Positions 15,571 to 62,387 of a stretch of DNA of 64,000 nucleotides are shown piece after piece. The notes below the pieces were generated by a model. The model saw only the letters and a program-made list of their open reading frames with translations. It searched no databases and was not told the DNA's origin. The DNA comes from Marsupella aquatica. Taxonomy: Eukaryota; Plantae; Marchantiophyta. Position 1 is the stretch's first letter, and every line of letters starts with the position of its first letter. The DNA lies in contig OZ316894.1 in NCBI GenBank assembly GCA_973895155.1, forward strand, positions 24,984,709 through 25,048,708. Direction: 5' to 3'. The translations under genes and the position numbers were made by a program.

Positions 15571-15756
15571 AGCATATACACCAGAATCACAGTCTATGTG
15601 AAGATTGCTGTCAGACACACTGCAAGGCTTCTCAATTCTGCTGTGGGCAAAGGTTGGTGCTCCAGTTTTTCTGCAAATATGTACAGTGTACCTTAGTTCT
15701 CAGTCTGCAAAGCACAGGAGTTGTACTTTCAGTTCTACTCCCACAGAACCAGAGAT

Positions 15757-16000
15757 CAAATCTATGTATACGTGTTTAAGATCTTGGGAACAATTTAATA
15801 TGGTTTCTCAAATCCAATTCTCATGGTCAATCGTACTATGTAGTAGCAACCAAAAGCTACTATCCAGGGAGAACTCAACCAGAGAACAAATCTATGCATA
15901 CGTGTTTAATATCTTGGGAACAATTTAATATGATTTCTCAAATCCAATTCTCATGGTCAATCTTACTATGTAGTAAGCAATCAAAAGGTACTATCCAGGG
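15757..16000. repeat. Near-perfect ~130-bp tandem duplication
   Basis: caaatctatg(t/c)atacgtgtttaa.atcttgggaacaatttaatatg.tttctcaaatccaattctcatggtcaatc.tactatgtagta...ctatccaggg occurs twice. Confidence 0.85.
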
Positions 16001-26336: not shown

Positions 26337-29300
26337 TCAACTGACAATGTAAATACCACTCAGAGTGTAGCCACCAGTAGCACTCATTTGCATGTGGGGA
26401 TGTGTCCTCGATGGCAAAACCTGCACAACCCAACGTTCCATGTCACTAATGCTGGAATGGTGTGGTTCTCCCTCCCGAACAGATGAAACGAGTCATGAAA
26501 GCTAGAATTAGATATACATAGATGAGAAGGACACCTGGTATTCCCGGCTCCACTGCTCAGAAAGCTGTAAAGCCACAGCCATATTGTTGGCCTGAAGCTG
26601 ATGCATGCACTCTGCTAGTGGCTGTCCAAACAGAACAAGTTACCCTTAGTCATTACGCTTCGAGCTAATCCACTCGTGGTACATATAGTTCGGTTGGAAA
26701 TCAATCCAAGAGAATTCCCCCCTCCCCCCCCCCCCCCACCACACAATGCAAGCCAACCCTCTCAATTGAGTGATGATGCGTCTATCCAATCTGAATCTGT
26801 CACATGGCTTGCGGCAGTACATGATACAAGCTAGTGGGCATCCAAAAAGAGCAATGTAAGGAGAGAAAGTCACTTTTGCACCTGTTGGTATGAATGATAA
26901 ATGACGAATGGGGAAGAAGATGATAAGAGTGGCAGGAATTGCTCAGCAACAGTCCAAGGCTCGAGTTCTGGTGCAGCAACAAGTAGGCTGCAACATCAAG
27001 CAGAAATTTCCGTCAAGATTTCATTTATGTAAAGTTAGAAATCTCAACGTTCTCGTGAACATCTACATAAATATTTGTTATTGCAACTACCTGCAAGTTG
27101 AAGAGAGGAGATCAGAGCTAACTAAAAATATCATAAGAGGACAATTGGCTAATTTGGCATATACAATATGACTAACATACCTTGTAAAACCTTGACTAGC
27201 CCATCTATTAATTTCAGTGACACTTGCTTCCAAGCCCGGTCTAGCACCTTTGATCTTTTCCTCACTGAAAGAAGAATTGGATTCCACATTTACTGACTGT
27301 TCCATATCTAGCACCTGTTCTTCAGATTTCTTAGTATTCACGGAATCAGGATCAATGTCCATGCTTCTCAAATCAGAAGTATCACTAGTAGGTACTTGAA
27401 CACCATTGGTTTGGATGCCATCCTTTTCTAACGTTTTTGATGCTTCTGTCGTCGAGACATCATCTGTCGTGGACTTTTCATGTGCATGCTCTGTGATATT
27501 GGCCTCCTTCCCGTCCTCGATGCTATCAGGTTTGTTCGACTCCTTTAGTGAGTCCAATCCACCATTAAATCTTCTTCTTGCTTCAATAAGTGTTGCAACT
27601 GGAGAGCGCAACACACTGCAGAATTTCGAGGAACAACAGTTTTCCTTTAAACCTCTCATTAATTCAAAGAATCTGATCATGTTTGCGCTAACAAACATAG
27701 AAACGACAGATCTGATAAAATAAACAACAGGAACGGGTCACAATCCACCTTTTGGCAGTAGGATCATCAATATTTAAGAGTCGAACCATGTCTATCGTTG
27801 GTCGCTTAGCAGTATAATATGTACTGCAAACCGCACCATGACCTGCCAGACTCCAAACAAAGCCCCACTTCAGGCTCAGAAACCTCAACAAAGGAGTAGA
27901 GACTCATTCAAATAGTTTTGTAACCGACCAATCTGAAACACTAAGACAAAAACAGGCTCGGAGACCAGGCTGTAGAAAAGGTATCAACCACTCCTAAAAT
28001 GCCAAGGTTGGTCTCTATTCTACTCTGTGCATCAGGTCCCTTACCGCCAACACGCTCTGCGACTGCTGCTGTAATCAGACCTCCCAGTGAGTCGAGTACC
28101 AAAACATCAGAATTTGCTCCGACATTGCTGAGAGATAACATAAGAGCTAGAGTATCCATCCGACAAAATCTGCCAAAACATAAGAAACAATGTCTAAAAT
28201 CAACCTCGATTGTTTACATTCAATAAGGTTCAATTATACCCATCGAAGATAGTATCCAATTAGTTTCATTGTCAAATCCGCAAAGATCATTTTCATAGAA
28301 TTGAGGTTTGCAAGAACGGTACCCAATTTTGCGCGGATCCTTGGCGAAATACGCCTCGCATATACTGATCATTCCAGGACGAATAAAATCATAATCGTGT
28401 CCAGCATTCGCCCACTACTTGCAAGTATCACTGAAGTATCACTCAACAACTCAGACACGTGTTTGGAGTGCCAAACTGCAAAGCAAAACATCAATCATCA
28501 CTTGGAAGAGGGTCAATATTGACCTCCGTGCAGAGGGCCGTCTAAGAATTACGCGAGGGGCATATTTCTTTTGTTTCTTCCGCATATACTTCTCCTGTTC
28601 CAAGTGCAACACACGTTCAGGACAGCTGAAGAGAAATCAGCTCTGTTTTCTAGCATGAATAAGATATATTACCTAGCTGAGAGTGAAGACAATTCCTTAC
28701 CTGAGAGAAAGGGGTCTTTTGATCAAAGGACGAGCTGTTGGCTACAAGGGCATCAATAATCTGCCTTCCTGATGCACCATCCCTGCAGGTTTGGAAGAAA
28801 AATATATCGATTGATTAGCGCGAATCTTCAATCAGGCCGCTTCTTATTGGACCAGTAATTTGAGGAATATCATACGTGAGCCAAGGTCGTTCATGGTCAA
28901 TTTTAACAAACTGAGTAGAGGGGATCATTCATACTTGCGCATTCGCTCAATGTCTCCAGAAGATAGAGTTTGGGAAGTATTTGTGTCAATGAGGTTGCGA
29001 TTGTCCCTCTCTCTGATGTCTTCATTTTGTCCTGACTCATCCTTCTCATCAACCTCCGTACAATTGTCTGTACTCTTCACATCTGCAATAGAAGAAGTCA
29101 AAGCTCAGTATTAAGCATTTGAACATAGTTGCACTGTCTTTCAACCAAAAGGGAAAGTAAATTGCCATCCTGATAAATGATTATCTTCCTGAATTCAGCT
29201 TCATTGTGCATGTATTGGAATGCATGATTAAATAAATAAATATGCCCTTAATACTCACAAACAACTACATGCGTCATATGAACTTCACTGTAGGATGACT

Positions 29301-38878: not shown

Positions 38879-41800
38879 ATGGAGCACAAGAAGCGAATAC
38901 TACTGGAATCAAGGCTACTTTTACTGCTTTTGATGCTGATGATTTCTTTCGTGGTGTCAACTCATGGCGATAAGATATCTTCAAGCCTATGGAAGACATG
39001 CGACCACCCCAAAAATAGAGTAGATGGCTTAAATTGCTCAAAGAAAGTTGTATTGGAATTGTCAATTGACAATGGCAAAGTATGTTCCTTTCAACTTCCA
39101 ACCTGAAATGTGTGAAAATAGACAAGTTTCCCGGAGTCAGGCCTGCCAAGTAATTATGTTGTAGTATGCATTTTCCAATATCTGGCCCACATGATTGAGA
39201 ACTTAAGAGAACCAATCATAGCCCTCAACACTAATCAATTGAAGGGGGGTTATGTTAGAAAATGTATTCTAGCATGGAATGACATTCAACGACAATTTAG
39301 CCTAGTTTCTTATAGTAAGTCCTTTCTCATTTGGCATTGGACACATGAACAGGGTCATGCAACTTTTACACTTTTATGAAGGTTGTTTGATTTCTTCTCT
39401 GTAGACAAAGACTCAGCTTTCAAAGCTCGTCAACTTTTTTTAGGATCTTTTGTAGTGTCAATATGGCCCTAAGATCAGTCTTAAAAGCCCAGCTGTGAGT
39501 GCCCAGAATATCACCTTGAGAGATAATTTGTCTTGTTCTTCTTTAGTTTGTGGTTTTCAATTCATGTGGTTGATTTCTCCATGCCCCAAAAAATGCCAAG
39601 AAATGAAGTAATATCATACAAAGTATACAGAGAAGCTTAGCATGCACGAAATTAAATTTGGCGAAGTACTGAAAACAAGGCCCCTCTCGATTGCGACATA
39701 AATGAATAACCCTATTTTCCTTTTGATGTCCAAGATCATGGAAAGCGATACCACAGAAATCTTTGTCACTTCGGTACAAGAAGCTGATGGTAAAAGTAGA
39801 GATCTTGGAAGGCCATACAGAGTGACAATCTACAAAAGTGATGTCTATGCTCAATACCCTTTGCGATATGTAAAGGTGAGATAAATTTCTTTTATGGAGT
39901 ACCCAAAGTTTTCTCCCAAGGGTTGAGCCTACAACGTTATAGAGGAATGTTGCAGTTTACTGCTGGTTTCTAGAGACAAATTCTGAAATGGAATGTGGAT
40001 GAAGATTATGGTCAACACATGCTAAAACTTTGGACTGCTAATGGAACTTATGCTTTAAAATCTTTTATCATATGTACAAGAGGATCTATTTTCTACACTC
40101 CTTTTTAGTTTTGGGAAGGGGGGGGGGGAAGCAGGGCACCATGTCACTTAATTCACCTTGACATGAATAGCCAACTGCACCCAAGGCTAATACCATGTTT
40201 GCCAATTTTACAAACGTATATTAAGCATATGAAAAGTCATACTTAAAAACCTAGAGCTTAATTTCTTCCAGTGATTCTATAGGGATCATTGTCATTTGTG
40301 CAAAACAAATGTCTTGAACTCCTTCACAAATACATAAAAAATAAGATAAAGTGGTAAGTCTTGATAGTCAAAGAAGCTTGTCATATTTGGAACTCAAAGA
40401 GCAGGTTCTATGATTCTTTTGTGAAGAAACCAGGTTGGCTGCTTGAATGTCAGTATTCTGTGTAGAACAACTAGCTCCAAGTAGTTGTGTACACCAATAT
40501 ATGCCTTGCTCCAGCTGGGGCTCTTGGATTTGAAGAGGGAATTTGTTTAGGGTTTAGGGATTGCTAAGTGTGACCCCCTAGTACGTGTGACCCCTAGTAC
40601 GTGTGACCCCTAGTACGTGTGCCATATATGGGCTCCCATCAAAATACTATGATTCTCCACTCCTTGGCAGAGCTTATATGTCATTTCATCTTGTGCAGAG
40701 TTTTGCGAAAGAGGTGGACTTTAAATACCCAAATGACAGTATGCGTTGTGGGTATTACAGCTTACTCCGTTCAATCAGTTTTTGTAATAAGTAGGCCTTG
40801 CCGAATAAAATCATGGACCCAATGCTCCTGTTCCCCTTGGTGCAATATACATGTTGACTTAGAATGTTGTGAGGATTCTATTTTTGCAGACTTCATCATA
40901 AGATTGAGGAGAGACTTCACCTTGGTGAGGTACTATGTTAATTTTGTATTTCTAATCAATCTTGTTTCATTTCATGGGATTTCTTCAAACTCCTATGAAA
41001 GAGTGTCATTTGTAGGTCTGGTTCAATAAAGCAATGGAATTTCTTTTAAGTAGAAAAACTTGTTGCAAGGTTTTATTTTTTCCAAGGGGAACCCACCTAT
41101 GAACAAGCTGTGCAACTAGTTTGCAGGCAAGGGAAACTGGAGGTTTATATTCTTGTATTTTCTCATATAATTCCTACAGCTACCACGAGCCCCTGTGGCG
41201 CATCACACATGTGAACAGCTTGAAGTGGTTTTGCATAGAGCCCATAATAGATACTGGAGAAGAACTGTATGGGCCGGGATTGATCTTTAGACCTCCTGCT
41301 TCAAAGCCACCCCAGCCACCTGTTCTGACCAATAGTCCCCACTATGAATGGCCTTGGATACCATCAATACACAGTCAAAATTTCTGAAATGACAGTTTTT
41401 TAAAGTTAAGTAGATTGTCACATCCAGTTTTGACCTGCAACACTGAAAGTCTCAACCTCCTAATAATGAGTTTTGAGTGGCATTTCACAATATCTCAGCA
41501 ATGTGGGCAATAGACCTTATTCCAGAGGAAAATGTTTGTTATATTTTCTTTCTTCCTACTTTTCTTTTATACCCCTTAGTACTAGTATCTGTAATGATCT
41601 CTTTATAATTTTGACATGACTAGTTATGTTACGCAGGGGTTTTGCAATGTTTGTGCTTGGAAAGATAAATTACCAAAGTGGTTAGCAGGAGCCAAATCAA
41701 TGAGAAGACCTGGCCTGCAATGTGTTTTCTTACCAAGTAAGGCCAACATTGCCCAAATGCCTAAACTTGTAAAACATGAACTCAGGACCCAACATGGGTG

Positions 41801-44800
41801 CATATATTGACTAAGCTGCTTCTGATAGTTTGTTATTTTTGAACGAGAAAATTAGGTATGTTCAATGATATTTCAACTCATTTCGACTATTGGTTAAGTT
41901 GCTTTTGAACTAGTTGATTAAAAAAAATTGAAAATGATTTTATTGGAAAAAAATCTTCAAAATTTTATTAAATTTTATTTTATTAAATTTTATTTTATTA
42001 AATTTTATTTTATTAAATTTTATTTTATTTTATTAAATTTTATTTTATTAAATTAAATTTCATCTCTTCCCTTACCTCTCAAACCAAAATGTCAAACATA
42101 TAAATGTTCTTAATTCTTTTCAGTAGCATATAAAAACCAAAAAAATTATAGGAATTAGTAATTCTTCAAATGGGATGCCTCAGAATAAACCATCTATATT
42201 GTAAATATAACTGAGAAAGCTTTTGGTAGGTTCAAATTTTATTTACAAATCCAGCTCTGTTGTACATAAATCTTAGCATTCAACATCTTGCTGCATCAAC
42301 TAGCTGGTTTATTGAGGAGAGAAGATAGTAAACCCCTCTGATGGACTCTTAATTTTCAGCCCTATCGATTATAGTTTTTAGCCTTCTATCTCTGCAGGGA
42401 TTTTAATTTTAGGCATTTGTCAACACACATACGTGTCATTGTCCCATCTCGTATATTATATGAAGTGTTTGTAGGGAAACTTGTGAATCTGCAAGGTTTA
42501 TAAAATAACAAAAATAATCTCTATATCACTATTTGCCTACTTCTTAAATATTATGGTTTTTGGCCTTGTGAAAAAAACAAGAGTAGGAACAAGTGCATCC
42601 TCTTGGTGGAAAAATGGAAGTGTGCATTGCCAAAGATACATTCAAAAACGGTTAGTTGACAAGCTTCACACAATAATGCTCCAGGTTCTCAATTTAGAGT
42701 CGAGAGATTTAAACAACCCAATCCGCCAACAAAATTGTCACCATTAATTCTGGAACCTGAAGGTATATAATAAATGAATTGTCCTGTTACATTTAAAAAC
42801 CATAAATATTTAGATAGCATACAGAAGGTCCCAATCAACTGTAGCTTTTGAACAAATTGACTATTATTCTAGACTCTTCTGGACAGCAAAAACAGTGTTT
42901 TTCCTATTCGTACTTTGAGATACTTCATCCACTATTTGAACATCAAGTCTTCTGCTTTCATTGAAATTATTGGAACCATTAAGGTTTACTTCAATGATAT
43001 TCATTGAAATGTAATATATGTTTCCCTTCTTTTAAAATAAAGGTACCCAGGCTACCTAATTGAAGACCCTACCATGACATTTGCAATTACCATGTTCTTA
43101 GAGGAATTATATTTGAAGGAAGGATTGGTCTATGTGCATTCAAAGAAAAACAAGGTACACCAGCATTTCCATATGTGCTCTTACTTGAGCTAAATTTCCT
43201 ACTCGAACCCAAAAACCTAATTTTATTTTTGCTGATATTTTAAATTTCACAACGGACCAAAAACTTGACTTAGAGAGTTTGATGATTGATCAAATTTCCA
43301 CCAGGAATTTCATGGAATAATAGTCATTGTGGTTAAATCTCATACACAGATTATATTGCTGCAATAAGAAAATATTATAACATAAGTGAGATCAATGATC
43401 CACAAGCTGGGGATAAATCCCAGATGGATTGGCGCAGAATGTAAGAAAACACTTGGGTAACACCCTTTACAGTTTTGACTGAAGTGGCTCATGATCATTT
43501 GCAGCCTATTTTAGTTAGTTTACCCGGTCATAAGTAGCTGGTCATGCCCAAACTATTCAAGATGTTCTTCACAAAAGTGAAATGTCCTTCCCAATAGTGG
43601 TAATTTGTTCATCATGCCCAAACTACTCGGGCCTCCTTCACGAAAGTGAAAATCCTTCCAAAAGTGGTAATTTATTACTCAATTGGTTTATAATATTGAC
43701 CATTTTTGTAGTCATCTGAAATATAGCAAATCATCTAACTAGAATCTCACCCTCTGTCAGGTAATAGATTGGATATCAGAGAACATGTAGGCAAAGATTG
43801 AGATTAAACAAAGATACAAAAGTTTCCAGATCAATGTACAAGTCTGCCAAACCCAGTAGTTTCAGTTGGTCGGGGTATACGGAAAAACTACTTGGAGCGA
43901 CCTTCACAAAAGTGAAGTGTCCTTCCAAAACCAACGGGTTAGTGTTGTTGCCAGGATAAATGGGCGGATGACTTTATGCAGTTCATGGGGAGGGGCAGGA
44001 CATCCACGCATCTTTTCCACATTCTAAAGTCCATAGACCCATACAGTTACAGTAAAAAAAGGTTCACAAACAAGTACATGAATATAACAAAAATATATTT
44101 GCGTAATTATTGGCATAACATTTTTTTTAACAAAACCATGGATATCTTAATTCTCTTTGATTCTATAGACAATATAGTCAAAGAGAATATATAAACTAAA
44201 AAGAACCTTGGAATCTTGGAACATGGATGTCTTAATTCTCATTGCATGTTCATCCAGAAGGTTGCGGAGTTAACCCCTTTGCAGAGAATTCATGTCGACA
44301 AAAGAAGTACTCTGAGGGCTTCCTTGCAAATAAATGTATCAAGCTATGCTCAACTATTTACCTTCAACGACAATCCTTCATCAATTCCAAGTGGAAGGGT
44401 AAGCAAGGTAGTTGATTCTTTTCACAATATTAGTGTTGTTTGTATGCCCAGTTGAGACGTTTTCCAAAAGAATATATTATGCACATAACATATAGAACCC
44501 CTTTGTACAGTGCCAAGTGCAACTGAAAATTAATCTAACTTAATGTAGATAGGGCTTTATTTATTTTGCCATTCTGACAATTGGGCTTTTTGGCTCTCTT
44601 GATCTTCCTGGTTTTCTTCTTTGATACAATCTTGTACTGGATTTCTTGCCTTTGGGATCATGTCTCCCCCTATGGTGCTTTTTGTTCTTTGTCAATGCTA
44701 TATACTTGAAACTTCAACTTACTACATTTCCTATTGAAAATAATTGAGTACCCATAGACCACTTTTCTTGATCCAGGACGAGGGAATGATGGTGAACAAT

Positions 44801-47800
44801 GAGAAGTACATGCCACTTTACATAATATCTCAACATGAACACTACAATGAAGGACATGTAAGCTGGCCAATTTTGTTTAAATTCTATGTTTTCTAGTTGA
44901 GATTTTTAGCCTTGCACTAATTCTGACTAGGGTGGGGGTCTGGTGCACCCATCAACAAGCCAAAGACCACAAGAGGACTCACAAGAAAAATAACCAGCAG
45001 GAAGGAGGGTAGATGTCAAACTGTACACCCACAGGACTGTAATTGTAGTAGGGACTACAGCACAACCCAAGCTGAGTGAGGTGAAAACTACACAGAAAAT
45101 GACTCCTATTGGCCCAAAGGAGGGTGTTGAATTCAATGAAGCACACTCAAACTAGAGATGGTGCAGGCATGAAGGGCCTGGACCAGCCTATTTTTTTTGT
45201 GCAATTTTTTTTGCCAAATTCCACCTCTCCAAAAAATGTTTGCCACTTTTGGCTAATATTTGCTAGATTTTTTAAACACCATTAGTCACTCTCCCACCAA
45301 ATCATGGACCATTAGCCAGAATCTAACGGCCCTCCTTAAATCTAGGGATATCTGACGGTCATGATTTATTTCAGTAAAATCTGATAGAGAATTTTCCAAG
45401 AATCTACTCCCTTAGAGAAGCAAACACTGGCTAAAAAATCAAAAACCTTTAAAAAATAAGTTGGCCTGTACTTCAGTCGTAGAACACTAAGATGTACATG
45501 GCAGGGTCCTAGGTTCAATTCCTAGCTGATCCATGTTGTTGAAAGTTCAAAAAATAATGAGCCCATCTAAATCTTGATTGTGCATTCTTCTCCATAAATG
45601 CACTGAAAATTACAAGGAGGAAAAGTGCAATGGCATTAAGTTTAAAATTTTAAGCTAATAGAGTGAATCCATGGACTGTGTAGATTGTTTGCTGCTTGTA
45701 GAAACCGCCTCAATCTTAGTTGGCTCTTTCCTGGACAGATGGGCTGGCTTTGAGGTTATGTGCTTTCTGGGTGGAAAGTCTTAGCCAATGTACATTTACT
45801 TGGTGTTTGGGCAAACTTTGTGACAAATATGGAAGTGCTTTGGACACCTTTTTCTTTATCCTGGACTGCCTTGGTTCAGGGGCCTTGAGCTTGATGTTGG
45901 CCCCCTTGTTTTTCGTTTGGGCTCTTTTGAGTGTTCATCTGTGGGTTTGCACAGAATCCATTCAACAAAATTGATTTAGAAGTCTACATTAATGAAAGAT
46001 AAAAATGTTCAAGATTTTAACATAAGACAATGTTAGATACCATGGAGGTTTCGTTTCAGAACTTATGTTAAATTGTTTGGTATCAACTCTAAATATCCCA
46101 ACACTCATTCAATTTTTTACTTGATTTTCTGGATTTTCAACATTCATTACTTATATGAGTTTAATTTGATATTTCAATTCTAGGAGGGTATTGCTGTGCA
46201 ACAAAGCATGGATGTCTTTTTAAACAAGAGCGTGACATCTTCTGTAAAGCTCGAATTCAAAAGGAATAAAATCTATTATTTTGTAACCAGGTACATATTT
46301 TTATGTTTTTCACTTTGCAAAATAAGGCATTTGCCAAATTCATTTTTTCACTCACTCATATAAACTCTGAAGAGAATTGAAGAGGAATGAAAATGGGTAC
46401 TTGTTTGATTAGCTAATAAAGTCACTGGCTAGGAGTAGAGATCAGTATAATTTGTTAAAGATAACATTCTACTGTAGCCAGTGCCTCTTTTAAAATAATT
46501 CTCTCCCCAAACAAAAGAAAAACATATATACGTCTAGGTTTTATAATGACTTGAAATGAGCAATTAGCCTCATAACGGAGTATTAAAGTGACAGTAATGT
46601 TGATTTTGAACATGATGGGAAATGTGGGAAGGGAATAGAAGTCCAGGAAAAATTGTTTCAGTGAGAGTTCCACCAAACATTGAAGGAATTCCAATTCTCC
46701 ATGTTGAAGTTACAAACACTGGGTGGCATAGTGCCAAATTTTTGATTCAGGTGATCTCATTGTATCCTAATAGCGTGTCAGTCAAAGAGGGCTTAATGTT
46801 AGAGCTTTAGCGTCTTTCAAATTTAGTACTTTTTTTTCTTCTTTTCAAATTTAGTACTTAAGTTTGCAGTTTTCTTTTTGAACATTTAACTTTTTGTATG
46901 TTATTGTAAATTTTTTTGATTTCAGCCACATTAAATCTTTAATTTTCTAGGATTTGTGACATCTTCAAAATCATCCATTAGAAATATTTTTAATTGATCT
47001 ATTTTGAACTATTTCAGGTGGCAAAGTGTTCTATTGGAATCCACAACCCACCAGTACGGTCCGAAACTCTTTGGTTGATAATTGTTTTAGATTCCTTTTT
47101 CCCAATTCGTATGCTTGATTCCTTGTCCATATATGCGGGTGGAATGGAAGTGCCTATTTTGACATTCCTTTGTTGTTTTCTCAGGTTCAGTTTGTTACCT
47201 TACCTTTCCCAAAATTTATTTATTCCTTCTTTTTTGAATTGCACAAGACTGAGAATGATTTCACAACCCATGTGTGTCAAGGTGCGTATACATGCTATGA
47301 ATCCAGTTGTAAAAGTTAACAATACGTTAGATCTCTTTACAGTGATTACGGACATATGACATTTGTTCTTGTCCAATATGCTTTAAATAAACTGATTTTT
47401 GAATACAAGTCGAAAGGTATATTTTAACTATACTAGCCTGAGATGCACAAATTTGGATGTAAATAGATACTAGAACATTCACGCCCATTGTGTCATTTTT
47501 ATAGACTCACCCTGCCCCCAATCCCCTTTTTCCCCTGTGCACCCAATTTCTGTTATGCCCCCAGAGTCACCCAGAGTCACCATCTAGAGGTTTCACTCTA
47601 GACTGTAGTCACTCAAGAGTAGATTTCAATCTTGATATGGCCAAACTCATATTGGCGCCATTTATTTTGTGTACTTTACTTCCATTTTAAAGTGTACTGG
47701 CAAAACCCCATACTGACCACAATGTGTCTTTCACAGTGAAATTATTTGACAGTTTTGGTGAGAAAGTGGATAGTTCAAAAATTGTATTCGGGACCATGCC

Positions 47801-50800
47801 CGGTTGGCACACTAAGAATTTGAAGGTTTGTAGCAGTCTGCACTTGATGTATGCAAAACGAGCGAGAAACAACTTTTTTTATATGACCAGCAGCTACTGA
47901 AAACATCTCATTTTAGTTTCAAGGTAGAACTCAATTCTGTGAAATAATTTTAGTGCTGGTCAAACAAACACTTATGAAACAAATCTTTTTGGGACAAAAT
48001 AATCAAAATTTTAACTCAATACTAATGTGCCATCTTGTGCCACACAAAAAATAAACAAAAGTATTCAAGAAATGTAGTTTACATCTAGTTCATTCTAATA
48101 TAGTCACGTCTTGTGCATGCTTTTTTGTTTCTTTTCTTCTGATGCCAATCTAGGATTATAATGCGGATCTTAACTCCACTACAAGAGGTGTACAAGAGTG
48201 CGATGGCATCTCTATGGGTCTCACATCCCAATATTATAGAACACATGACAACATCTCTAAAACGACAGTATCAGACAACCAGCGAAGAAGCCACAGTCTA
48301 GCAATCTACAAAAATAATTTAGCGGCTTGTCAACCAAAAAATATTGCTGCAGTCGACAGCTATTTCCAACGCAGGCTTGGCACAGGCAACATTGCAAGAC
48401 AAAAAAATAGAGTTGAGAACAAAGTAGTAGCCACTACACCCGGAAATAGAGGAAAAAGCAAAGTGAGAACAAGAAATGGGAATTATAAACCAAAAATACT
48501 TGGAAGTCCAAGAGCTCTCGTGAAAATCTTTGAGGAAATTGCAGCAGATGCTCCAGCTAATGAAACTCCTCCAGCTGCTGCAGCTACTCCATGTAGCATT
48601 ATTACTTGGCTGTTTGGAGGTTGTAATACCACTGGGAATGGAACAGGGAATTCAACAAACACTACATGCGGGTATACCCCTCTTTAAAATCACTTAGGAC
48701 ACTGTTTCAATTACTCATCTCCAAATTTGGATGGGTAGCCAAAAGTTTAAATTGCTTTCTTTTTGAAGATGTTTGTCTAGAAGTTCTGGTACACAAATAA
48801 TTTATGAATGATTGCATGTTTAAAAAAAAAAAAAAAACTTGCAATCCATATTAATATTTTGTTGGATGGAAACTGTTGCCCGGTTTGTTTAGAGGTTTCC
48901 CTAAACTGATGACAACAGTTTCGACTGACAGGAACTGTGGGGGTTCTGCAATTCATGCGTTCACTTGTGATATTAAGAAGTTCTGTTTCATACCTGTACT
49001 TGAAGTTGTTGGATTGGCTGTTCTCATAGTTCTAAGTAAGTATTCCACCAGTGAATGACCACCAGTTATTTCTCTTCTCTTCTCTCTTTTGTCCCTATTA
49101 TAAGCACTTTTCAGCTTTACTTGCAATGTTGCACTTAAGGTTTAGTATATGTGTGCAGCAATTATAAGGAGCTAACTATCATTTCCATAAATGTGATTGC
49201 AGTTTGTATGTTTGGTATCATTTCAAGCGAGTCCAAAAAGGTTAAATCGGGTAAAGGTTTTATCAAAGGGAAGTTACAGCAAGCTAAGGGAATAGTGAGG
49301 AAAAAAACGCCAGCAAAAAAGAAAGCAGGCAGAGGGGCTGGAAAGGCAAAAGGGAAGAAGGTGGGAGGAGGGGCAGGAAAGAAGAAAAACCCAGGCAGCA
49401 AAACCTAAGCTGGCAGAGCTACCGCTGGTAAACTGAAGATAGGGGCAGCTAAACCTAAACCTGCACCAAATAAGGAAGCTGTGTATGCCAAATTAGAAAG
49501 CTCAATGTGTATGTGAGAGTTCATGAGTGGACTAAATTCTCTGGCAAGGTTTCCTTCCCTCATTGTGAAAAACAATTACGTATTTAATCTAACATTTAAA
49601 TAAATGTGCTTGCAGTTTCTATAGTTGGGTGCATTTCGTGCGGGTCCAAAAAGGTTGCATCGGGTAAAGGTTGGTTTCTGAATGAGCTAAAATCCTTATG
49701 TAATCTTGGGGCAGAAGATGGGGTGGGGCATGGTGAAAGTGGACGGGGAAAACATAGGGTTTTACAATTTGGGAAAAAGATTGGGATGAAGATTGGGAAG
49801 GGTACTGGGAAAGTTTTAGCATGGTCTGGGAAAAGAACAGGGAAAGCTTTGATGTGGACAGGGAAGAAGACTGGGAAAGCTTTAAAATGGTCAAGGAAGA
49901 ACGGGGGGAAAGCTTTGAAGTGGTCAGCAAAAGAGGGAGGGAAAGCATTAGTATGGACGGGAAAGAACACTGGGAAAGCATTAGTGTGGACAGGGAAGAA
50001 GACTGGAGAAGGTTTGAAGGAAGCTTATGTCAACTTGAAGAAGCAAGATTATAAGGGGAAACATCCTAAAAGGGAGCATCATAAAAGGAAAGGTAAAGGT
50101 AGAAAGAAAGGGAGAAAGAAAGGAGAACCCACTGAGGAGGAATCACAAAACTCTGAAGACACTATGTTTGGAGGACTATTTGGAGACGACCAGGATCCTA
50201 AAAGGGAGCAGGGTAAAAGCAAAGAGAGAAGTAGAGGGACAAGGAAAGAAGAGACCACTGAGGAGGAATCCCCAAACTCGGAAGACACTATGTTTGGAGG
50301 GCTTTTTGGAGAAGACCAGGATACCACATTAGTTGAGAAGACTGAAAAGAAAAGGAAGAAACGAAAGGAGAGAAAGAAAGCAAAAAGAAAATCGGATCAG
50401 TTTCAGGAAAATGATTATGCAAAAGAAGAGATTGATGATGCAGAGGATGAAATTGATGACCCCCTTGATCAAGAAAATGATGATGGAAAAGATGAGATTG
50501 ATGATGCAAAGGATGAGATTGATGATGCAAAAGATGAAATTTATGGCCCTCTTGAAGAGCCAGCAGTCCACAAAGTTTCAAAAAAGAAAGCAAGTCTAAA
50601 GGAAACTAAAGACAATGCTCTTGAAGGGTCGCCCGATGACTCCACCAAAGAAGTGTCAGAGAGAGTAAAAAATGCTGCCAAAATTGGTAACGGAGAAGTG
50701 TCTGATCCCTCCCAAAAGCAGGTTATCCAGATCATATTAAAACAAAGTGACGTTGAGAAAGAAACTGGGAAAAAAATGGCAACACATGAGGGAAAATCCA

Positions 50801-51381
50801 CTAAAACCAAGAAAAATGTCCATAAAAAACCTATCACAAAGTCAAAAAAAGCTTCTAGAAAGACCAGTAGACCTCATCGCCATCACAAGACAAAAGATCA
50901 CAAACATCATTCATCACCATCATCATCTCGCTTTAGTGATGAACCCTCCCAACTTACTATAATCCCATTCTACTCTCCTAGTCAAGCATCACCTTGGTTA
51001 TTGACCCAACCCCAATTTCAACCTCAACCTCCTTACACCAACTTCCAGCCAGTGATTCTCCCAAATCAGTTCCCTGCAACTCCAAATCAAAATATCCTTT
51101 ATCAATTGCCTCCAAATCCCGGCCAAACCTGGCAACGTCAACCAGGACCCCCCCTTTCAAATTTTAGCCAGAATTTCCAGCAAAATCAACCAAGACTTCA
51201 ACTCCCAAATATGAACCAAAACCTTCAACAGCCTCCCCAAATATTGACCAATCCTGGCCAAACTTGGCAACAATCTCAACCAAGACCTCAGCCCCAACCT
51301 TCTAACCCAACCTTCCAACTGGGCTTCCAACGGTATCAACAAACTCCACAGCCAACTGCTTTCCAACCCTTTCAAAGATGA
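38879..51381 (+). CDS. HAP2: Divergent HAP2/GCS1-like class II gamete fusogen, 18 exons; long-tail isoform about 1270 aa
   Basis: Exons 38879-39079, 39735-39875, 40699-40751, 40890-40924, 41087-41142, 41637-41736, 42587-42650, 43043-43154, 44258-44398, 44777-44857, 46184-46290, 46639-46750, 47018-47053, 47185-47281, 47737-47825, 48154-48671, 48932-49035 and 49616-51381 are all GT-AG and phase-consistent (3813 nt). HAP2 motifs appear in order: signal peptide; KTC..LNCSKKVVLEL; RDLGRPYRVTIYKSDVYAQYPLRY; GFCNVC; RRPGLQC; SVHCQRY; YPGYLI; PLYIIS; TRSPGKIV; VTNTG..A.F..V.KCS; VCQVKLFDSFGEKVD; C..C....FTC....C; then a TM helix and basic tail. Exons 3-5, 10 and 16 are the least certain. Confidence 0.85.
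40569..40620. repeat. 16-17-bp minisatellite, 3 copies of gtgtgacccctagtac, in a HAP2 intron
   Basis: Seen directly in the sequence. Confidence 0.9.
41959..42060. repeat. Pure A/T 15-bp minisatellite (aaattttattttatt)n in a HAP2 intron
   Basis: About 6-7 copies seen directly. Confidence 0.9.
45461..45534 (+). other. tRNA-derived relic (SINE head or pseudo-tRNA) in a HAP2 intron
   Basis: T-arm-like stem-loop ctaggttcaattcctag containing a B box, with an upstream A-box-like tacttcagtcgtag. No intact cloverleaf. Confidence 0.45.
49203..49408 (+). CDS. Alternative duplicated terminal exon 18a of the HAP2-like gene; short K/G-rich tail, isoform about 750 aa
   Basis: tgcag acceptor in phase 1, matching exon 17. 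Its first ~55 nt are paralogous to exon 18b (ICMFGIISSESKKVKSGKG vs ISIVGCISCGSKKVASGKG). Confidence 0.7.
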
Positions 51382-54300
51382 TAACCAACACCCCAGTCAT
51401 TTGCCTAACAAAAACTTGCAAAATAAGGCTTTTCACCATTCCTAGCCCAACACTTCCCTACAGCTTGTCTCCATTTTCAATATAAAACTTTTAAAACTCT
51501 TCTAAACCCAACACTGACAACAAGACAAATCACATTGTAAACCATAAATTTTAGTAGCCTCCTTTGTATGAAACCCAGCCTACAGCTTTTGAATTCTTGC
51601 ATTCTTAGCCAAAATGTACCTTGTTAATTCTTGTCCTCCATAACCACGTACCTTCCACCTTGGGCACTCTTAAGTGAGTTCTGGATCAAATAAACCTTTC
51701 TAGTTGTAAATTACAGCCTGTATTGCCCTGAAGAACATTCTAAAGCGAAGGACTTATCTTCATGGCCATACAGGTCAATTAAAAACCCTTACCTTTAGAA
51801 AACCCATTATTTACACGTGAAACTTTTATGCAAAGTGAGTAGAAACTTTCTCTTCATATTGTATGTCATATGCCGGAACTTTTAGAGTTGTCTGGCTCCT
51901 TAAGTCTTTTAGAGTGCGGAAGCCTCTGAAGCCTGGCCCCCCCTGAAAGTCTTTTAGAGTTGACTGGCTCCTTAAGTCAGTTTTTAGGTACAGGGGGCCG
52001 TTAAGTCTTTTTCTGGCAGATTTGTTAACTTGGGGGAGGGGGGAACTTCAGAGGATAGACTATAGCCTGGGGAGTGGCACTGTCTCCAGTGAGTGGCTAG
52101 TGCATTCAGTGTACCCAAATAGCGTTTGAGCTAAGCATGTGGAGAACAGGAGATGCCCTCCTAAAAAGTATTGTGAAGCATTGTTAAATATACTACAAGC
52201 CAGATGCACTACAAGCTAGTTTTGACAAACAACGGAGATGGACCACCCCAATCCACAATGGACAGTTTTCAAACATACTTTGAACTCCAAAATGTCCCCA
52301 AAGGATATTGTTTGAACATATTACTAAAACCATATCATGAAAAGATATGAACTCTAGATAATATATAACCTATTGTGCCCACATAATTTTGGTCACAGGC
52401 AGGGTTTACTATTGTGGTCCATCGGAGCAGTTTTTCCAAAGTTATAGTTAAGGTTATACTGAAAACAATTTAAGTCCAACCGTCTCCGTGATTTTTCTTT
52501 ATACCTTGCAGTTTCAAACACTGATAGTCTGAACCCTCAAGATCTCAGCTCATTCTGAGATCTATTCTATTTTTAACGAAAAATAATCTCTTCGGACTTA
52601 GGGACTAAAATATATTATCTGTTAACAGGTCCATTATTATGGACCATAATATCTTCTCAAATTCGAGCCCAAACTCTCGTTTCACGGGTCATTATAGTAC
52701 GAGCATTATTCTCGTTGGGTTTCATTGCGCAGCTGTGAGCCGCCCGTACTGTCGGCAACGTACTGACTCCCGGGTACTGACTGGTACTGGAAGGTATTAT
52801 TCCGTAGTACGTTTCGGTACTCCTTTCCGTATTACAGTAGTCCCTTACTCCCTTACAGCTCCCTGCCAGAATCAAATGCAGTTACCAGTAAATCTTTCGT
52901 GACATAACTGTGAGGGGACAACAATTAGTAGACGTTGCACGCAAGTAAATAAATGAATGAATGAAATGTTAGAATGTCTGAGAAGACTTGGGTAACACCT
53001 CTAATTATTTTTACTGAAATGTGACTTGTCAACACTAACTTCATAAGATATAATGTTGGGAGGTGAGTCCAACAAAGGGTTAGAAGTTTTAGTATGTTAC
53101 AGGGCATATTTGATAAAACATAATGTTTGGATTTGAGGGTTACACCATATAGCATGTTAGTTCTAAGACACAGCTATTTTAACTTATTGACAATAATGTC
53201 AATTATATCCTATCAATTATCAAATAGCAATTATAGCATAGTATTCAAATGCATTAAAACAGTGAATCAAATAAATAAATAGAATAAAAATGCACACCTT
53301 TACCACACTTTTTAGGTGAAAAACAAGTACATAACTTGTAAGATGTACCCTAGAGGTATAGTATTTTGTGTTTGACAGAGAAGTATGTTAGCATTATACT
53401 CTAGCTTTGTACTCTACTTTTAGGCCCTATTGAAAGATTCATTATTTAGGTGACACCTATTAACCTCTAAACCATAAGGGTTGGAAAGTTTTCACCAATG
53501 GACATATAACCTACAGGGCATCTCTGGTGTTTGTACTGGGTGCATCCTGGTGAGTCTGATCATCTTGTGCAATAGAGAATGAATGGCAGAAAGAAAATCT
53601 CATCAAATACATGATAAGTTATCACAATAAAACATATCATATCAAATGAAAATCATAAACTTGATAATTAATAATAATTAAAGGGGTTAGATAATTTGTT
53701 AAATTCAAACCAATACAAGTGAAATGATACACTAGGCCAGATTTAAAAGAAAATTCAGAACTCATATTTCTAATAAGACAAATAAGGTAGAAGGTGTTCA
53801 CCATATAGCAATGTCGGAAAATGGATTTGAGGGTTACACCATAACATATGTGTGAAACACAAACATCAAAATTAGTAGACAAGAGTCCTTTCTATTACCT
53901 GGATTTCCCTGGTCTAGTATGAAACACCTCTAATAAATTTTTACTGAAATGTGACTTAACTTCATAAACATCAAAATTAGTAGACAAGTGTCCTTTGTAT
54001 CACCTTTCAAAGGGGTAAAAAAAGTCTGACATTGCTATATGGCGGAACCTAGTTACATTTTTTTCTCATGATTTAATGTAGCATAACTTAGAACCCTAAC
54101 GTGCTCTTACAATAAGACATTTATAAAAATAACTGTCCCACTAGATGATTCTCAAACCCCTTTTGCCAATAAAGAAATCTTTACTTTGATTCAATTTTTT
54201 AACCCCTTTAAAGTGAGGGTTACATTTGACCCAAATCCCCAACAATGCTGGAAAATGTTTTCTGAGACAATTGTTTCATACAAAACAGATCAGTGCAATG

Positions 54301-56367
54301 GTGGAAAGTTTTTGCAAGACACTCGTATTGCAATCATTTTTTTCGTGAAGCCTTTCAGCTGCAGATGGCTTTTTTCTTAAATGTTTCAATGCCCTTAAAG
54401 ACACCCAAGTAGTTAAAACTCTGTCAGGAAATTGAACACTGGACAGCCTTCCAAGCAGAGTAACCCCCTCTAAAACCACCACTGTCTAGAAACGTAGATT
54501 GAAAGAAAGATGCCATGATATAAATCATTGGCCACTACACTAACCTAGGCCGAGCTCTGCACAGGCTCTCTAAATTGGGGACAACACACAGCCAAGAGTG
54601 AAATAACTTGCACAATACACTGAGGTTCCTCTGTACAGCCGAGGGATAAAAAAGTAAGCACAATACACTGAGGCTGAGACAACCACGATTGTCACCATCA
54701 AGTATAGGTTCCAATCCAGATTCAAAGCTTCAACCTGCAGATTCATAGCTCAATGTATAGCTTGAGTTCATTCACTTCAATTTCTTCAAAACTTTAGCCT
54801 CCACACAGGACAGATGTGACCACAGAACAGCACTCAAGTCACTCACTCATCTATATTATTGGCAAGACCAGTGAGGATACCAACTCGCAAGAGGGGGAGC
54901 AGTTCACAACTCCTATTGCCTCCTTGGTTTCAAGGGGTAATAGAACTTTAAACCCAACAGATTCACAGCTCAATCCACCAAACTGACAGCAGCATCCGCA
55001 CAGCTACTGCAAAACCTTGCAGAAAAGCAGAAACTTGGATACAATTTTGGAAGCCAGTAAGCACACAACATCAAGTAGCAGCACCAAGCACAGATCAGCA
55101 CCAAGCACGAGCCTGAGCACCCGATGCCAAATTGTTCAAAAGAACCTGAGGCCAAAGAGGACCAAGCAACACCAGCAGCACCAAGGTCCAAATAGAGCCC
55201 TGAGCACCCTGCAAAAGAGCACGTGCGGAGGATGGGCACAACCTCAAATCCACAAACTGCGTCAGTGGCTCAACAACTTTGAACCCTATGAAGCTCCCAT
55301 GAATCCAATTGTTGGATCAATCTCCCCAATGTGCACAGCTAAAGCCAAAAAAAGCCACAATGCCACAAGATCACTGCTCAGCTGAAGCCGAGCACACAGC
55401 CAAAATAACAAAGTACAAGAGCCTTCAAAAACCAGGTCTAAAAAATGAGCACAAGCAAGTGCAAACCAAAATCAAAAGGAGCCGCATAGGACACCAATTG
55501 TGAGATAAGGATGTTTATAAAGGAAGGGTTAACTAACCATAAATTTTAGAATTTTTACGTTTAAGATCTCAAATGAGGCTGAAGAGGGACCTGAAGACTA
55601 CTTTGAAATGTTATGAGACTTTCAAGCCCATCTGAGGTCAACCCGGATTGATATTAGAGAAGGAGGATCAACCCGGAACTTTTTACTATAAGCCTTGAAT
55701 GAGATATAAAGCTTATACCGAGACTCTACTAAACAACAGCTGTCCATTGCCAAAGTTTTTAAAACCATAAGTCAAACACAGGCACGACCACAGCAGAATC
55801 CGGATATAAGGAAGGAGAGTCGATCCGGCCTCTCACACCTCTCAAAGCCGAACTTAGTAGGTTTTGAGCTCCCGAGCGCATTAGGCTGTTTAAGCAATAG
55901 AGTGAGGAGGCTCTACCCTTTTGGTAGAGGATCTTGGGTCCGGATTATAGGACCAATCTTGCATTGCATGATGAGAGCCTGGATATGAGGGTAGTGACTG
56001 ATTTGTTGTGAGGGGAATGCCTACTCCACCGCTGGAAGTGAAGGCAGGAAGTTTGAGATCCTGGTCGTGGATACATCGGTTGTGAGAAGGGAGGCCAGGT
56101 CAACCCGGACATCACCATTGCAGGCCCGATTGAGTCCAGATTTTCCCCACGTTAGATGACCCTGCATTGTGGTTGACGAAATCTTGATGCAATTCTTCCG
56201 AAACGATTTTTAGTTGATTAGAAACGCTGCGGCCAGGTCGACCCGGACATTTCTACCATTGGTCGACACCGAAGCGATTGAATATTCTGAAGTTGCAGAA
56301 TTGTAGAGCTTGCCGTAGAGGAGGTAGAACATTTATTGGAAATCAATTTGTTACTTCCAGAAATCCT

Positions 56368-58108
56368 ATGGAGCAAGGGGCGGATCCAGCCGGAATGTCC
56401 ACTTCTCGCGTCTCTAAGGAGCATTCAACCTCAACATCACCTGCACCTACTCCGGTTAAAGCCCCTGTGAGACGATCGAAGAGAAAGGAGGTCCCCATTG
56501 CCATGAAAATTTTGAGGCCAGCTATTCCGGACAGTGAAGCTGAGAAGGTCAAACTGAGGGAGTCTTTGCTCAGGATGGGTTGTGAGTCTCTGATGGAGCT
56601 ACCCTGGAGTTATCAGAGCGAAGATATGATCAGAGAGATCCAATCCAAGGAGTATCCGGCTGAGTTTAAGGATACCTCCAGAGGCCGACCTGAGCGATGG
56701 ACTCAGATGATGATTGCAGGAGCTTTGTATTGGAAGATGAAGGAGAAGGTCCAGTGGGGAGAGCTGTCAACCTAATCCTTCCTTACTTCAAAGGAGCCAT
56801 CAATAGTAAGGACGGGTTCAATGTTTCTAAGTGTTTGGATCCTGATTTGAGACGAGTCTTCAGCTTTTTGCTACCCCTGCTGTACCCTGAGAAGCCAAGA
56901 AGAGTTACTGTTGGAGTTGGCTCTACCATTGTTGCTGCTTACAAGGGAGAAATAAAAGTCAACTGGGCTAAGCTTATCTTTGACTTAATAAGGAAGTTGG
57001 TACAGAACCTGTCCAACAAGAGTCCTACTCCCCTCTCCTGCTACCTGGCACATCTATATAGTTTTGAAGGAGTCTTATTCAGAGAGGAGAAGAAATTACT
57101 ATTGGCCAAGTTCAACTTCATAAAGTATGGAGAGACAGATCCAGATATCACCCAGGCCACCTCTGATGACAGTGAAGATGAGGAACCAGCAGAGACAAAT
57201 CCTTGAAAGACCCGGTCTGTTGCCCAGAACCTTGACCCGGACTTTGCCGACCCAGCCTTCGTCGACCCGGCTGAATTTCCGGATGCACCCGGCCATGCCT
57301 ACCTAGACACCCTAGCTGATTTCCAGATCATCTTAGACACATTCCAGAAGGTGAAGAGGAAGACCACTGTGATGGAGAAGGCCATCACTGACATTTCTCA
57401 AAAGTTAGGAGTGAAACCAGGGCAGATTCTTGAAAGATCTCCACCATGAGTGATGCCACAGATAAGAGGAAGTTGGAGAAGGAGAATGAGTTCCTCAAGA
57501 AGAAGGTATCTGAACTCAAACAACACTTGGAAAGGAGTAAGAAGAAGAATGAGCTTGAGCATACTCTTCAACTCAGTATCACTCAATCTTTGGATCTGAT
57601 TGAGCCTTTGACTGAGATAGCTTCTCTGGATCTTCTTAAGGCCCAAATTTATGATGAGTATTTGGCCAAGAACACCACACCCATCCTTTTCTCCAAGATT
57701 AACCATTTAGTGGTAGATGTGAGTACCAAGGTGGATGATGCACTTACGGGTCTCTCAAAGACCTGTGAAGCCTTAAGGGAGATGAGTGACTTGACTACAG
57801 AGGAGATATTAGCTGATACTGAGATTCCTGCCTTTACTACCAGATCTTTCTCTCCTAGTCCTCATGAAGGAGTCTATTCCACTGGCCCCTCATCACCCCT
57901 CAACCCTCCTGGTTTCCCCACTCCCAGTACACACTTCCACTCCCATTCTTACACTTATTCTCATGACCCAAGTGCCCATCAGGAGAACATGGATATTGAC
58001 CCGTCCATCCCTTTTACCACTGGCCAGCAGGGAGTTTTCCTTCGACCAGAACCCCTTGCCATGGCTAACCCTGAGGAGGTTCCTTCCCAAAAGCTAGGAC
58101 CAGAATAG
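56368..58108 (+). pseudogene. Decayed retrotransposon-associated accessory ORF of a bryophyte-type family
   Basis: One protein split by a frameshift near 56720, an in-frame TGA at 57204 and a frameshift near 57440. It carries ELPWSYQSEDMIREI..RGRPERWT, KDGFNVSKCLDPDLRRVFSFLLPLLYPEKPRRVT and VNWAKL, then a coiled coil. I recognise this pattern from repeated liverwort TE-associated ORFs. No RT or integrase is visible. Confidence 0.6.
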
Positions 58109-60170: not shown

Positions 60171-61352
60171 AAAGGCCATTCCAATCTCATTTGCCAATTT
60201 AGTTTTGACACTGGATTTTGACCAATAGCTTTTGCCACGTTGCTAGGTTTGATGAGGACCTCAGTCCATTTGCTTTAGTTTTGGTTCATCCTAGGGGTTT
60301 CCTATTGCTCATTTCTTTTGTGTTTGGTTTTTGTCCACTCTGGACCTCTTTTGTTTGTTCTTTTGTACTCTGTTTGGTCCCAAAAAGTTTGTTGTGGTTT
60401 TGTTCCCATTTACTGGAATTTAAAGAAATATATTTTAAACCCCATATAGTTAGCTTTTTCTTTTAGACCCCATTTAACAATGATATAATATGTGCAATTT
60501 CATTACATTACAAACTAGCAATGGATGTTCCAGAATGGGCCAGCTATACTATATGGCCAATCCACCTTTCAGTATTTTGCCTTACTAATATTTTCTGCTG
60601 TGTATTTTTGTTTTGGTGTGACATAACACCCGGGCCATAACATGGTCCATCACTTGTATGATTCAGATTCTAAATTATTTTAGGCACACCTCTCTTAATG
60701 TTTTTAATCTAGCTACCCCAAAGCTCTCCTTTCCCACTGCATTTAGATTTCAAAATACAGTGCATCTAAGCCCTTTAGCAAATTTTATGGAATTTCTGCC
60801 AATGGAGCAAGATTGTATCTCTGGCTGTGAACAAGAGAAAAATGATAATAGTACCTTTCTTGAAACTTCCCAAACCATCCTCAATCCATACTAATGTGTA
60901 CACTTTAGAATGTTCCTTGTTTGTTGAATTTGTGTATTCCTTTTCTACTTGACAGGCTCAAACAAACTTACTACAAAAGTACAAATATTGGGGCCTAGTG
61001 GTCAGCTTGGGTGTGGAGGAGTGACTTGTGACCAGGAAGTTTCAAGTTTAATCATAGTCCATACACTCATGTTCTTGTACCTACTTAGTATCAATTCCAT
61101 GCAAAGCCTTTTTGAGTGGGTCAAATATGTTACTCACTTGTGTTAATTGTAAGAATTACATATAAAATGCAAAATATAAACCCCACGGGTTTTCCTTGTG
61201 TGCAAACTAGTTGGACACCTTGTTCAAAGGCAGTTTCCCCATAAAGAAACTTTAATGCAAAGCAAAAAAGCAACAAAGGGCGTCCTGTTGGTGCCTTCCT
61301 TTCTCCATTGACATCAACAAATTTCACTGTGATGTTATGATATATCCTAAAA

Positions 61353-61958
61353 CAGCTTTTTACTAAGCTGCCCCCCTAACTGTCCTAATTTGGTATCCTG
61401 TCCCCGAAACAATTTTATTTACCACTATGCTCCCCATTCCATATCTGGGTTAGTATAAGCGTACACTGACTTAACAGTGCCACATGGCAAGGCGTGAGTG
61501 GGCTGCATTTCCGTGAGTAAAACAAGGGCAAAGGTTGGCCCGTTTTGGCTCCTCGCGGGTCTCACTTTTCATGAGGGGAAATTCGGGCCTCAGTACTTGG
61601 TGAGGGGAAAGTCGGGGGCTGCTCCTCCCAAACCTGAGTACTTGGTGAGGTCGAAGTCAGGAGGCTTTGGCTATTCCCGGGCCTCGACACTTTTGTGGGT
61701 GGGGGGGGGGGGGTGCCGGGATATTTTGGCTCTTCCCGGGCCTGCGACAACAGGCTGCCATGGGAAAGGAGGGGGACAAGGGGCAAGTCAAGGCAATTTC
61801 ACCCGCAGCCATTCATGCCTGGCTACGTGGCACTGTTAAGCCAGTGTACGCTGTATACTAACCTAGATACGGAATGGGGGGCATAATGGTAAATAAAATT
61901 GTTTTGGGGGCAGGCTACTAAATTTGGACAGTTAGGGGGGCAGCTTAGTAAAAATCTG
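61353..61958. mobile_element. Non-autonomous DNA transposon / MITE with ~155-bp TIRs, Mutator-like
   Basis: Left arm cagctttttactaagctgccccctaactgtcc...ttaacagtgccac mirrors right arm gtggcactgttaa...ggacagttagggggcagcttagtaaaaatctg. It is flanked by the 10-bp direct repeat tatcctaaaa (61343-61352 and 61959-61968). Confidence 0.88.
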
Positions 61959-62387
61959 TATCCTAAAAGTGTCCTTGTTGATATGTGCCTCCAGCACATT
62001 TGATCAACACTTGGCTTGGAGTTGGGATATTGGATATTTAGAAAACACTAGCCTATCTGTCACTGTTGCCTTCCGCACCTGTTTCCTTCCCCACCTATTT
62101 CCTCACCCCAAAACTTGCAGTCACCCAAGGTTATGGTCTAGAGACTTCACTCTAGACCATAGGATCCAACGTGTAGATTTTGATTGGGAATTATTAGTTA
62201 GATTGAGGTCAGGTTCAGAAGCCCAACAAACTTGATTTCGTGAGAGGCTAGATCAACAACAACTCAACTCACAAGTACAAGGCAGCTGGGTTTGTATTCT
62301 AGAATTAAGGCACACCATAAACTAAAATTTCCCTCTCTATGCTTTTGTTTTGGTTTTTTAAAGAAGTATCTTGCTTTGTGAGATTTA

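Follow-up and report, generated by a model that had tools for sequence, protein, structure and literature searches.

The stretch of DNA analysed here (the window) comprises 64,000 nucleotides (nt) of the liverwort Marsupella aquatica (assembly GCA_973895155.1, contig OZ316894.1, positions 24,984,709 to 25,048,708 of the forward strand) and contains a divergent gene of the HAP2/GCS1 family. The part of this gene that all predicted forms share ends inside a transmembrane (TM) helix, at a donor that is followed by two candidate last exons. Joining the donor at 49035 to the acceptors at 49203 and 49616 gives stop-free proteins of 733 amino acids (aa) with a short tail and 1253 aa with a long tail, and we consider it fairly probable that the two acceptors are used in this way, as alternative last exons. 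The exons keep here the names 18a and 18b that they had in a preliminary description of the locus, although the 16 shared exons of the present model would make them 17a and 17b. The features at this end of the gene are as follows.

38879..49035, plus strand: part of a divergent HAP2/GCS1-family gene that is common to both forms; 16 exons, beginning with the ATG at 38879 and ending at a phase-1 donor after 49035
48932..49035, plus strand: last shared exon (exon 17 of the preliminary description), encoding the Cys-containing end of the stem and the N-terminal side of the TM helix, with a phase-1 donor GTAAGT
49176..49259, plus strand: copy a of a duplicated block, 27 nt of intron with the acceptor and 57 nt of exon; branch-point-like CTAAC upstream at 49172
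49203..49408, plus strand: coding part of exon 18a, 68 codons for the TM end and a short Lys/Gly/Ala tail, orthologous to the C-terminus annotated in Calypogeia fissa
49409..49615, plus strand: spacer of 207 nt, candidate 3' untranslated region of 18a and 3' intron end for 18b; TGTA at 49482 and 49508, CTAAC at 49589, AATAAA at 49599
49589..49672, plus strand: copy b of the duplicated block, on which all 6 polarisable amino-acid changes fall; among them are two juxtamembrane Cys that neither 18a nor C. fissa has
49616..51381, plus strand: coding part of exon 18b, TM end and tail of about 580 aa, 588 codons

Sequence inspection and scripts agree that both acceptors follow tgcag and that both are in frame with the donor, which leaves one base over (phase 1). 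Among the 210 AG sites in 49070-51380 the acceptors of 18a and 18b rank third and seventh; a third tgcag acceptor, at 49159, was rejected because its frame ends after 5 codons. In a self-BLAST of the window, 49176-49259 aligns with 49589-49672; these are two copies of an 84-nt block that lie 413 nt apart and are 82.1% identical (E 1.8e-16), with 23 of 27 intronic and 46 of 57 exonic positions the same. This block is the paralogous start of the two exons that had been noticed before. Beyond it, both up- and downstream, alignments of the two regions score no better than shuffles, and duplication of a whole exon in tandem was rejected because homology is confined to the 84 nt. Single 1017-nt contigs of runs X3 and X4 (study P2) span 49113-50129, that is, 18a and the start of 18b, so the arrangement with two copies is not an artefact of assembly. 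A donor-like motif in phase 1 (CGG/GTAAAG) is found inside both copies of the block, at 49251 and at the paralogous site in 18b.

Each exon completes the TM helix and then diverges from the other, as first described. The 21-residue hydrophobic stretch has a mean Kyte-Doolittle value of 2.79 when completed by 18a and 2.82 when completed by 18b, compared with 2.20 when the intron is retained. The tail lengths were also borne out, with 68 codons for a basic tail of about 60 aa and 588 codons for a modular tail of about 580 aa. Exon 18a encodes 22 K/R and 1 D/E residues and has its single Cys at position 2, inside the helix, whereas 18b has Cys at positions 6, 9 and 29, so that several juxtamembrane Cys are indeed a property of 18b alone. 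Between the branch-like CTAAC of 18b (49589) and its AG lies the AATAAA at 49599, the counterpart of which in 18a reads CATAAA.

The gene model and the HAP2 family

The gene model was built with tblastn, using a protein of C. fissa (CAM6102247.1, 768 aa; P0001 in our sets) as guide, and all introns of its 16-exon shared part are GT-AG. This part encodes a signal peptide, an ectodomain, an extended stem and the first part of the TM helix. With exon 46616-46807 as the query, CAM6102247.1 was the one relative among 17 candidates, and protein searches with the gene returned it alone (1/17, 1/7984 and 1/202 candidates). The 18a form of the model is collinear with it over the full length, with 462 of 725 aligned residues identical (64%).

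The C. fissa protein matches PF10699 at 124 bits (cut-off 27.4) as well as five HAP2 chains in the PDB, with E values from 3e-11 to 4e-4 (Chlamydomonas 5MF1/6E18, Arabidopsis 5OW3, Trypanosoma 5OW4), while single exons of the window gave weak Pfam matches for 2 of 14 pieces. From the model and its hydropathy, the architecture of a HAP2 is present: signal peptide (judged by eye), ectodomain, one TM helix and a cytoplasmic tail. A Glu and an Arg of the C. fissa protein align with a Glu and an Arg of the Chlamydomonas protein that lie 59 residues apart (counted by hand) and correspond to E126-R185, the invariant salt-bridge pair of domain II, and both predicted salt-bridge residues are kept in the window model. 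The ESM Atlas model of the C. fissa protein is poor (pTM 0.23), and the structure nearest to it is a HAP2 cluster, at a TM-score of 0.43. The 518-nt exon 48154-48671 encodes a low-complexity stem of about 170 aa between domain III and the TM helix, which is also found in C. fissa at about 37% identity. Differentiating sperm of Marchantia express HAP2 (PMC6290024).

A segment of the HAP2 profile is missing from both liverwort models. The C. fissa protein covers PF10699 positions 3-248 with residues 56-297 and positions 311-467 with residues 299-455, which skips about 60 positions, and the window model is collinear with it there. The spacing there is also 45 residues shorter than in the Arabidopsis chain and 51 shorter than in the Trypanosoma chain (counted by hand). 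The skipped positions are probably the conserved pfam10699 segment of about 50 aa that contains the ij loop; the exact mapping of the gap onto that loop is our assumption, made partly from the spacing. At this point the window gene has an intron:

44858..46183, plus strand: intron of 1326 nt at the position of the missing PF10699 segment of about 60 positions

No matching single, phase-0 exon for the skipped segment was found in this intron, a search that could miss a pair of exons. The candidate ij exon 45720-45971 was rejected, having no match in Pfam or the PDB. A remnant-like CDKYG...F motif stands at 45819, inside an open frame of 84 codons. Because the C. fissa protein guided the window model, the same exon could be missed in both. 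We lean towards the view that the window gene lacks the ij segment. In the literature this segment is described as conserved among HAP2s and is called a signature of the family, so that, if it is truly gone, the gene would belong to a HAP2 lineage that departs from the family signature (PMC6089408). The preliminary description had called the gene product a fusogen. Homology to the HAP2 family was upheld by PF10699 and the PDB chains, but the label itself is in doubt on account of the roughly 60 PF10699 positions that neither the window nor the C. fissa gene model contains, and a membrane-fusing activity of the predicted ectodomain is putative.

Selection on the two last exons

A refuting case considered at the outset was that one of the exons would be a dead, unconserved duplicate. 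For 18a this is ruled against by its match to the end of CAM6102247.1, where 45 of 68 residues are identical, including one run of 16. Over the 21 codons that can be compared with C. fissa, 6 have changed on 18b only and none on 18a only; in 2 others 18a and 18b agree, and in 3 all differ. The 18a frame remains open for 35 codons past its TAA (49406-49517), and this extension is rich in Lys, Gly, Ala and Pro and contains GAAKPKP, where C. fissa has GAAAKP. A 15-nt motif is repeated 50 nt apart near the 18a stop (49394 and 49444).

A second haplotype allowed comparison within the sampled material. The contigs of runs X3 and X4 contain no exon joints, which has no bearing on splicing since they behave as DNA. 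In each of these runs one haplotype is almost the same as the window sequence and a second differs from it by up to about 6% (13/215 and 16/267 letters); X2 covers 16 of 30 bins and X1 none. The second haplotype may be an allele, a homoeolog or the product of a mixed sample. The comparison covers 48880-51800, where 40 of the 77 differences are listed, 29 of them in 18b. Exon 18a has one silent and no replacement difference among the 14 of 15 differences listed for the spanning contig.

Exon 18b runs for 587 full codons without a stop. In 500 local dinucleotide shuffles there were 26 stops on average and the longest frame was 303, and a chance open reading frame was rejected on these grounds. 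The tail has the following parts:

49762..50037, plus strand: basic repeat of 92 aa with an 11-residue period and a net charge of +20, having six 33-nt units anchored by W; predicted to form an amphipathic 11/3 helix
50063..50322, plus strand: basic-then-acidic module in two copies, each ending in EDTMFGGLFG
50407..50545, plus strand: acidic tandem array of 21-nt (7-aa) units, 6.5 copies
50968..51381, plus strand: C-terminal region rich in Gln and Pro, in which the second haplotype lacks 12 nt, in frame, at 51312

The proportions of silent and replacement differences between repeat copies (pS/pN), computed from pooled and non-independent pairs, are 0.62/0.21 for the 33-nt units (pN/pS about 0.34), 0.31/0.04 for the EDTMFGGLFG modules (0.12) and 0.63/0.20 for the 21-nt units (0.32). 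Between haplotypes, the 29 differences listed in 18b comprise 19 replacement, 10 silent and no nonsense changes, a pN/pS of 0.50 (p 0.06), or 0.55 (p 0.13) without the four that lie in a repeat. The replacements are more conservative than expected by chance (p 0.005; p 0.003 when combined with the silent changes). The single indel in 18b is the in-frame 12-nt deletion, versus four 1-nt indels in the 419 nt past the stop, a contrast with p 0.001 if the latter are four events and about 0.04, calculated by hand, if they are two. The first in-frame ATG of 18b is at 49786, and the 56 codons ahead of it are open. The 6 replacements in this leading segment are conservative (p 0.004), as would be expected if it is translated from the upstream exons. 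Both 18a and 18b bear signs of selection, which are weak for the first 56 codons of 18b.

The hydrophobic moment of the 92-aa repeat peaks at 98 degrees, a peak that was reached by 0 of 5000 shuffles and that the 11-residue period favours by construction. We take this geometry to be that of the 11/3 lipid-binding helices of the synuclein and apolipoprotein type. The two EDTMFGGLFG motifs follow acidic runs within 50131-50322, and they resemble GLFG repeats or a candidate ATG8-interacting F-x-x-L motif. The first 150 residues of 18b have a net charge of +26, and membrane-proximal positive charge is present in both the 18a and the 18b tails. Arabidopsis HAP2 needs positive charge after the TM helix and not a set sequence (PMC2841615). 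Many HAP2s have a Cys-rich polybasic stretch, the alteration of which affects localisation or function in a species-dependent manner (PMC8777248).

Proposed use and origin of the two ends

If 18a and 18b are alternative last exons, the use of 18a, with cleavage of the transcript in the 207-nt spacer, would compete with skipping to 18b. The AATAAA at 49599 is a candidate poly(A) signal for the proximal form, at a place where it would be in competition with the 18b acceptor. Exon 18a would be the ancestral end of the gene. Its acceptor and TM end would have been transferred, by copying or by gene conversion, to an older coding stretch that lay downstream, after which the copied block of 18b would have changed fast (9 replacement and 2 silent differences) and gained its two juxtamembrane Cys. 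Both tails would supply membrane-proximal positive charge, as required in Arabidopsis HAP2. With the long tail would come palmitoylation and a 92-aa amphipathic helix bound to the inner leaflet, which may alter where the protein is located or how it acts.

The proposed history draws on the ages of the parts. The duplicated block is young, with a pS of 0.16 and 4 of 27 intronic positions different (3 of 27 in the second haplotype), and the repeats inside 18b are older, with pS from 0.31 to 0.63. Since pS in the repeats exceeds that of the block, either the acceptor and TM end were grafted onto coding sequence already in place or gene conversion has refreshed a duplicate of greater age. The body of 18b is thus probably older than the block at its start. 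The phrase 'tandemly duplicated terminal exons' of the preliminary description consequently fits only the first 57 nt of each exon, the remainder being unrelated. Its wider interpretation, a choice between last exons, keeps the two in-frame TM ends and tails, both with signs of selection, but loses the notion of simple exon duplicates.

Several observations weigh against alternative use of the two exons. Both junctions are known here from DNA sequence alone, and the C. fissa annotation has the 18a form only. The acceptors score 5.7 (18a) and 4.8 (18b), compared with a median of 8.5 for the real acceptors of the gene, and a 22-position matrix from the same 15 sites ranks them 11 and 35 of 211. 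By our estimate, AATAAA is not rare in DNA as AT-rich as this. The duplicated block, with its 9 to 2 differences, gives no indication of purifying selection; of the 6 differences in the first 56 codons of 18b none is silent (combined test p 0.24); and the deficit of haplotype replacements in 18a relative to 18b is not significant (p 0.10). Moreover, 37 of the 77 haplotype differences fall outside those listed, and contigs mask variants. The open frame past the 18a stop may reflect a recent truncation. A single-sequence AlphaFold model of 171 aa of 18b has a pLDDT of 39 and no helix. Searches of 1.84 billion representatives found no homolog of 18b, its N-terminal query giving 13 repeat-like matches, and the ESM Atlas gave no usable match.

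None of the 13 matches contains PF10699, and the five that were inspected are unrelated repeat proteins. There is no Pfam family for 18b, and of the metagenome pattern scans one gave 53 matches, none of them confirmed, and the other gave 0. The dead-duplicate case does not hold for the 18b frame either, which shows divergence of the coding type, although these searches yielded no homolog of it.

Some of these points would fit a locus in which 18a is the sole HAP2 end and 18b is a separate single-exon gene starting from the ATG at 49786, or has ceased to be expressed, with the duplicated block a dead passenger. We regard this as unlikely. It accords with a body of 18b that is older than the block (pS as above; intron identity 23/27), with the excess of replacements in the block, with the 18a-only annotation of C. 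fissa and with an excess of silent haplotype changes downstream of the ATG (10/23, p 0.04) that is absent upstream (0/6). Such a gene would nevertheless need a promoter within 378 nt of the 18a stop, and all 56 codons between the acceptor and the ATG are open and in phase, their 6 replacements being conservative. The acceptor and the branch-like site of 18b are, furthermore, kept in both haplotypes.

It is distinctly improbable that 18b has taken over in this lineage as the working last exon and that 18a is a recently abandoned ancestral exon. The large frame under selection in 18b, the 35 codons that 18a has perhaps lost to a stop and the weak haplotype test of constraint on 18a would all suit this. 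Against it, the end residues shared with C. fissa, with their run of 16, are kept at about the gene-wide 64%, no polarisable change falls on 18a whereas 6 fall on 18b, and the 18a acceptor is both proximal and better scoring than that of 18b. A very improbable arrangement is one in which 18a is partly an internal cassette, its phase-1 donor at 49251 joining the first 48 nt to the 18b acceptor and doubling the TM end, with or without the short form: this donor scores 6.8 (real donors of the gene 1.8-8.7), the join is in frame and homology between the copies stops 9 nt past the donor, but the C. fissa protein reads straight through the donor-like site, the motif of which may be kept for its amino acids.

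The reading of 18a and 18b as alternative last exons can be extended to a liverwort HAP2 paralog that would have lost the ij segment and would produce two regulated forms through the choice of last exon. The long form would have gained palmitoylation sites and a synuclein-like helix that bends the inner leaflet. This extension is doubtful; if it is true, different gametes or stages would draw on two products of one gene, one of them short-tailed and the other shaping membranes, a switch under splicing control of which the literature searched has no report for HAP2.

Elsewhere in the window, three long and partly overlapping frames of 185, 170 and 224 aa lie at 56218-58108 (plus strand); they have no Pfam matches and resemble by eye a gag-like or accessory remnant of a transposon. 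A 216-aa frame at 27087-27737 (minus strand) has a weak SPATS2-like Pfam match (E 0.002, below the cut-off) and is probably an exon of a neighbouring gene. Local clusters of direct repeats are found at 9335-10041, 12626-12989 and 14454-16375, and a 156-nt inverted repeat at 61352-61506 and 61805-61959.

Comparison with known systems

The predicted protein resembles the HAP2/GCS1 gamete fusogens in its signal peptide, ectodomain, single TM helix, basic tail and aligned Glu/Arg pair. It is unlike known HAP2s in having two alternative predicted tails in one gene and in missing about 60 profile positions, and its stem exon of about 170 aa, common to C. fissa, is a further difference from the known gamete fusogens. 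HAP2 tails range between species from almost none to >500 aa and are often Cys-rich and polybasic, and their role, which also varies between species, is still under scrutiny (PMC8777248). The closest comparison, CAM6102247.1 of C. fissa, is collinear and 64% identical, has an 18a-type tail and skips the same PF10699 segment. It differs in that no 18b-type form is annotated; the comparison was with the annotated protein, so that C. fissa may have an unannotated 18b.

A literature search over titles and the openings of abstracts, with few subscription papers, returned no report of alternative HAP2 last exons and none of a liverwort HAP2 without the ij segment, and the parts available of PMC12069490, PMC8793881 and bioRxiv 2020.10.29.361501 contain nothing on either. 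The earlier statement that no described case was known for HAP2 agrees with this search as far as HAP2 itself is concerned, but alternative tails are known on another fusexin. The Caenorhabditis elegans proteins EFF-1A and EFF-1B are spliced isoforms with a similar ectodomain and TM helix and with different tails that change surface expression and potency (PMC4723337). EFF-1, a class II cell fusogen of the fusexin superfamily, is like the window gene in that one gene has alternative tails, which in our case are read from the genome only. It differs in being a somatic nematode fusogen with isoforms shown by cDNA, whereas the window gene belongs to the HAP2 family, its predicted switch point falls within the TM helix and arises from the duplication of an acceptor, and its tails are of about 60 and 580 aa.

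In Drosophila Dscam, the alternatives for exon 17 have a role in targeting the protein. One of two such TM exons is chosen per mRNA (PMC3364881). The Dscam variants are internal and share their tail, whereas the alternatives in the window are terminal and have unrelated tails.

A single ectodomain with two natural tails, one basic and of 60 aa, the other of 580 aa and bearing both Cys and an amphipathic repeat, would allow the role of a HAP2 tail to be tested with an internal control. Exon 18b resembles a young isoform, with a splice site and TM end that would have been grafted onto an older coding stretch. It may be confined to few species, and EFF-1A/B provides a precedent.

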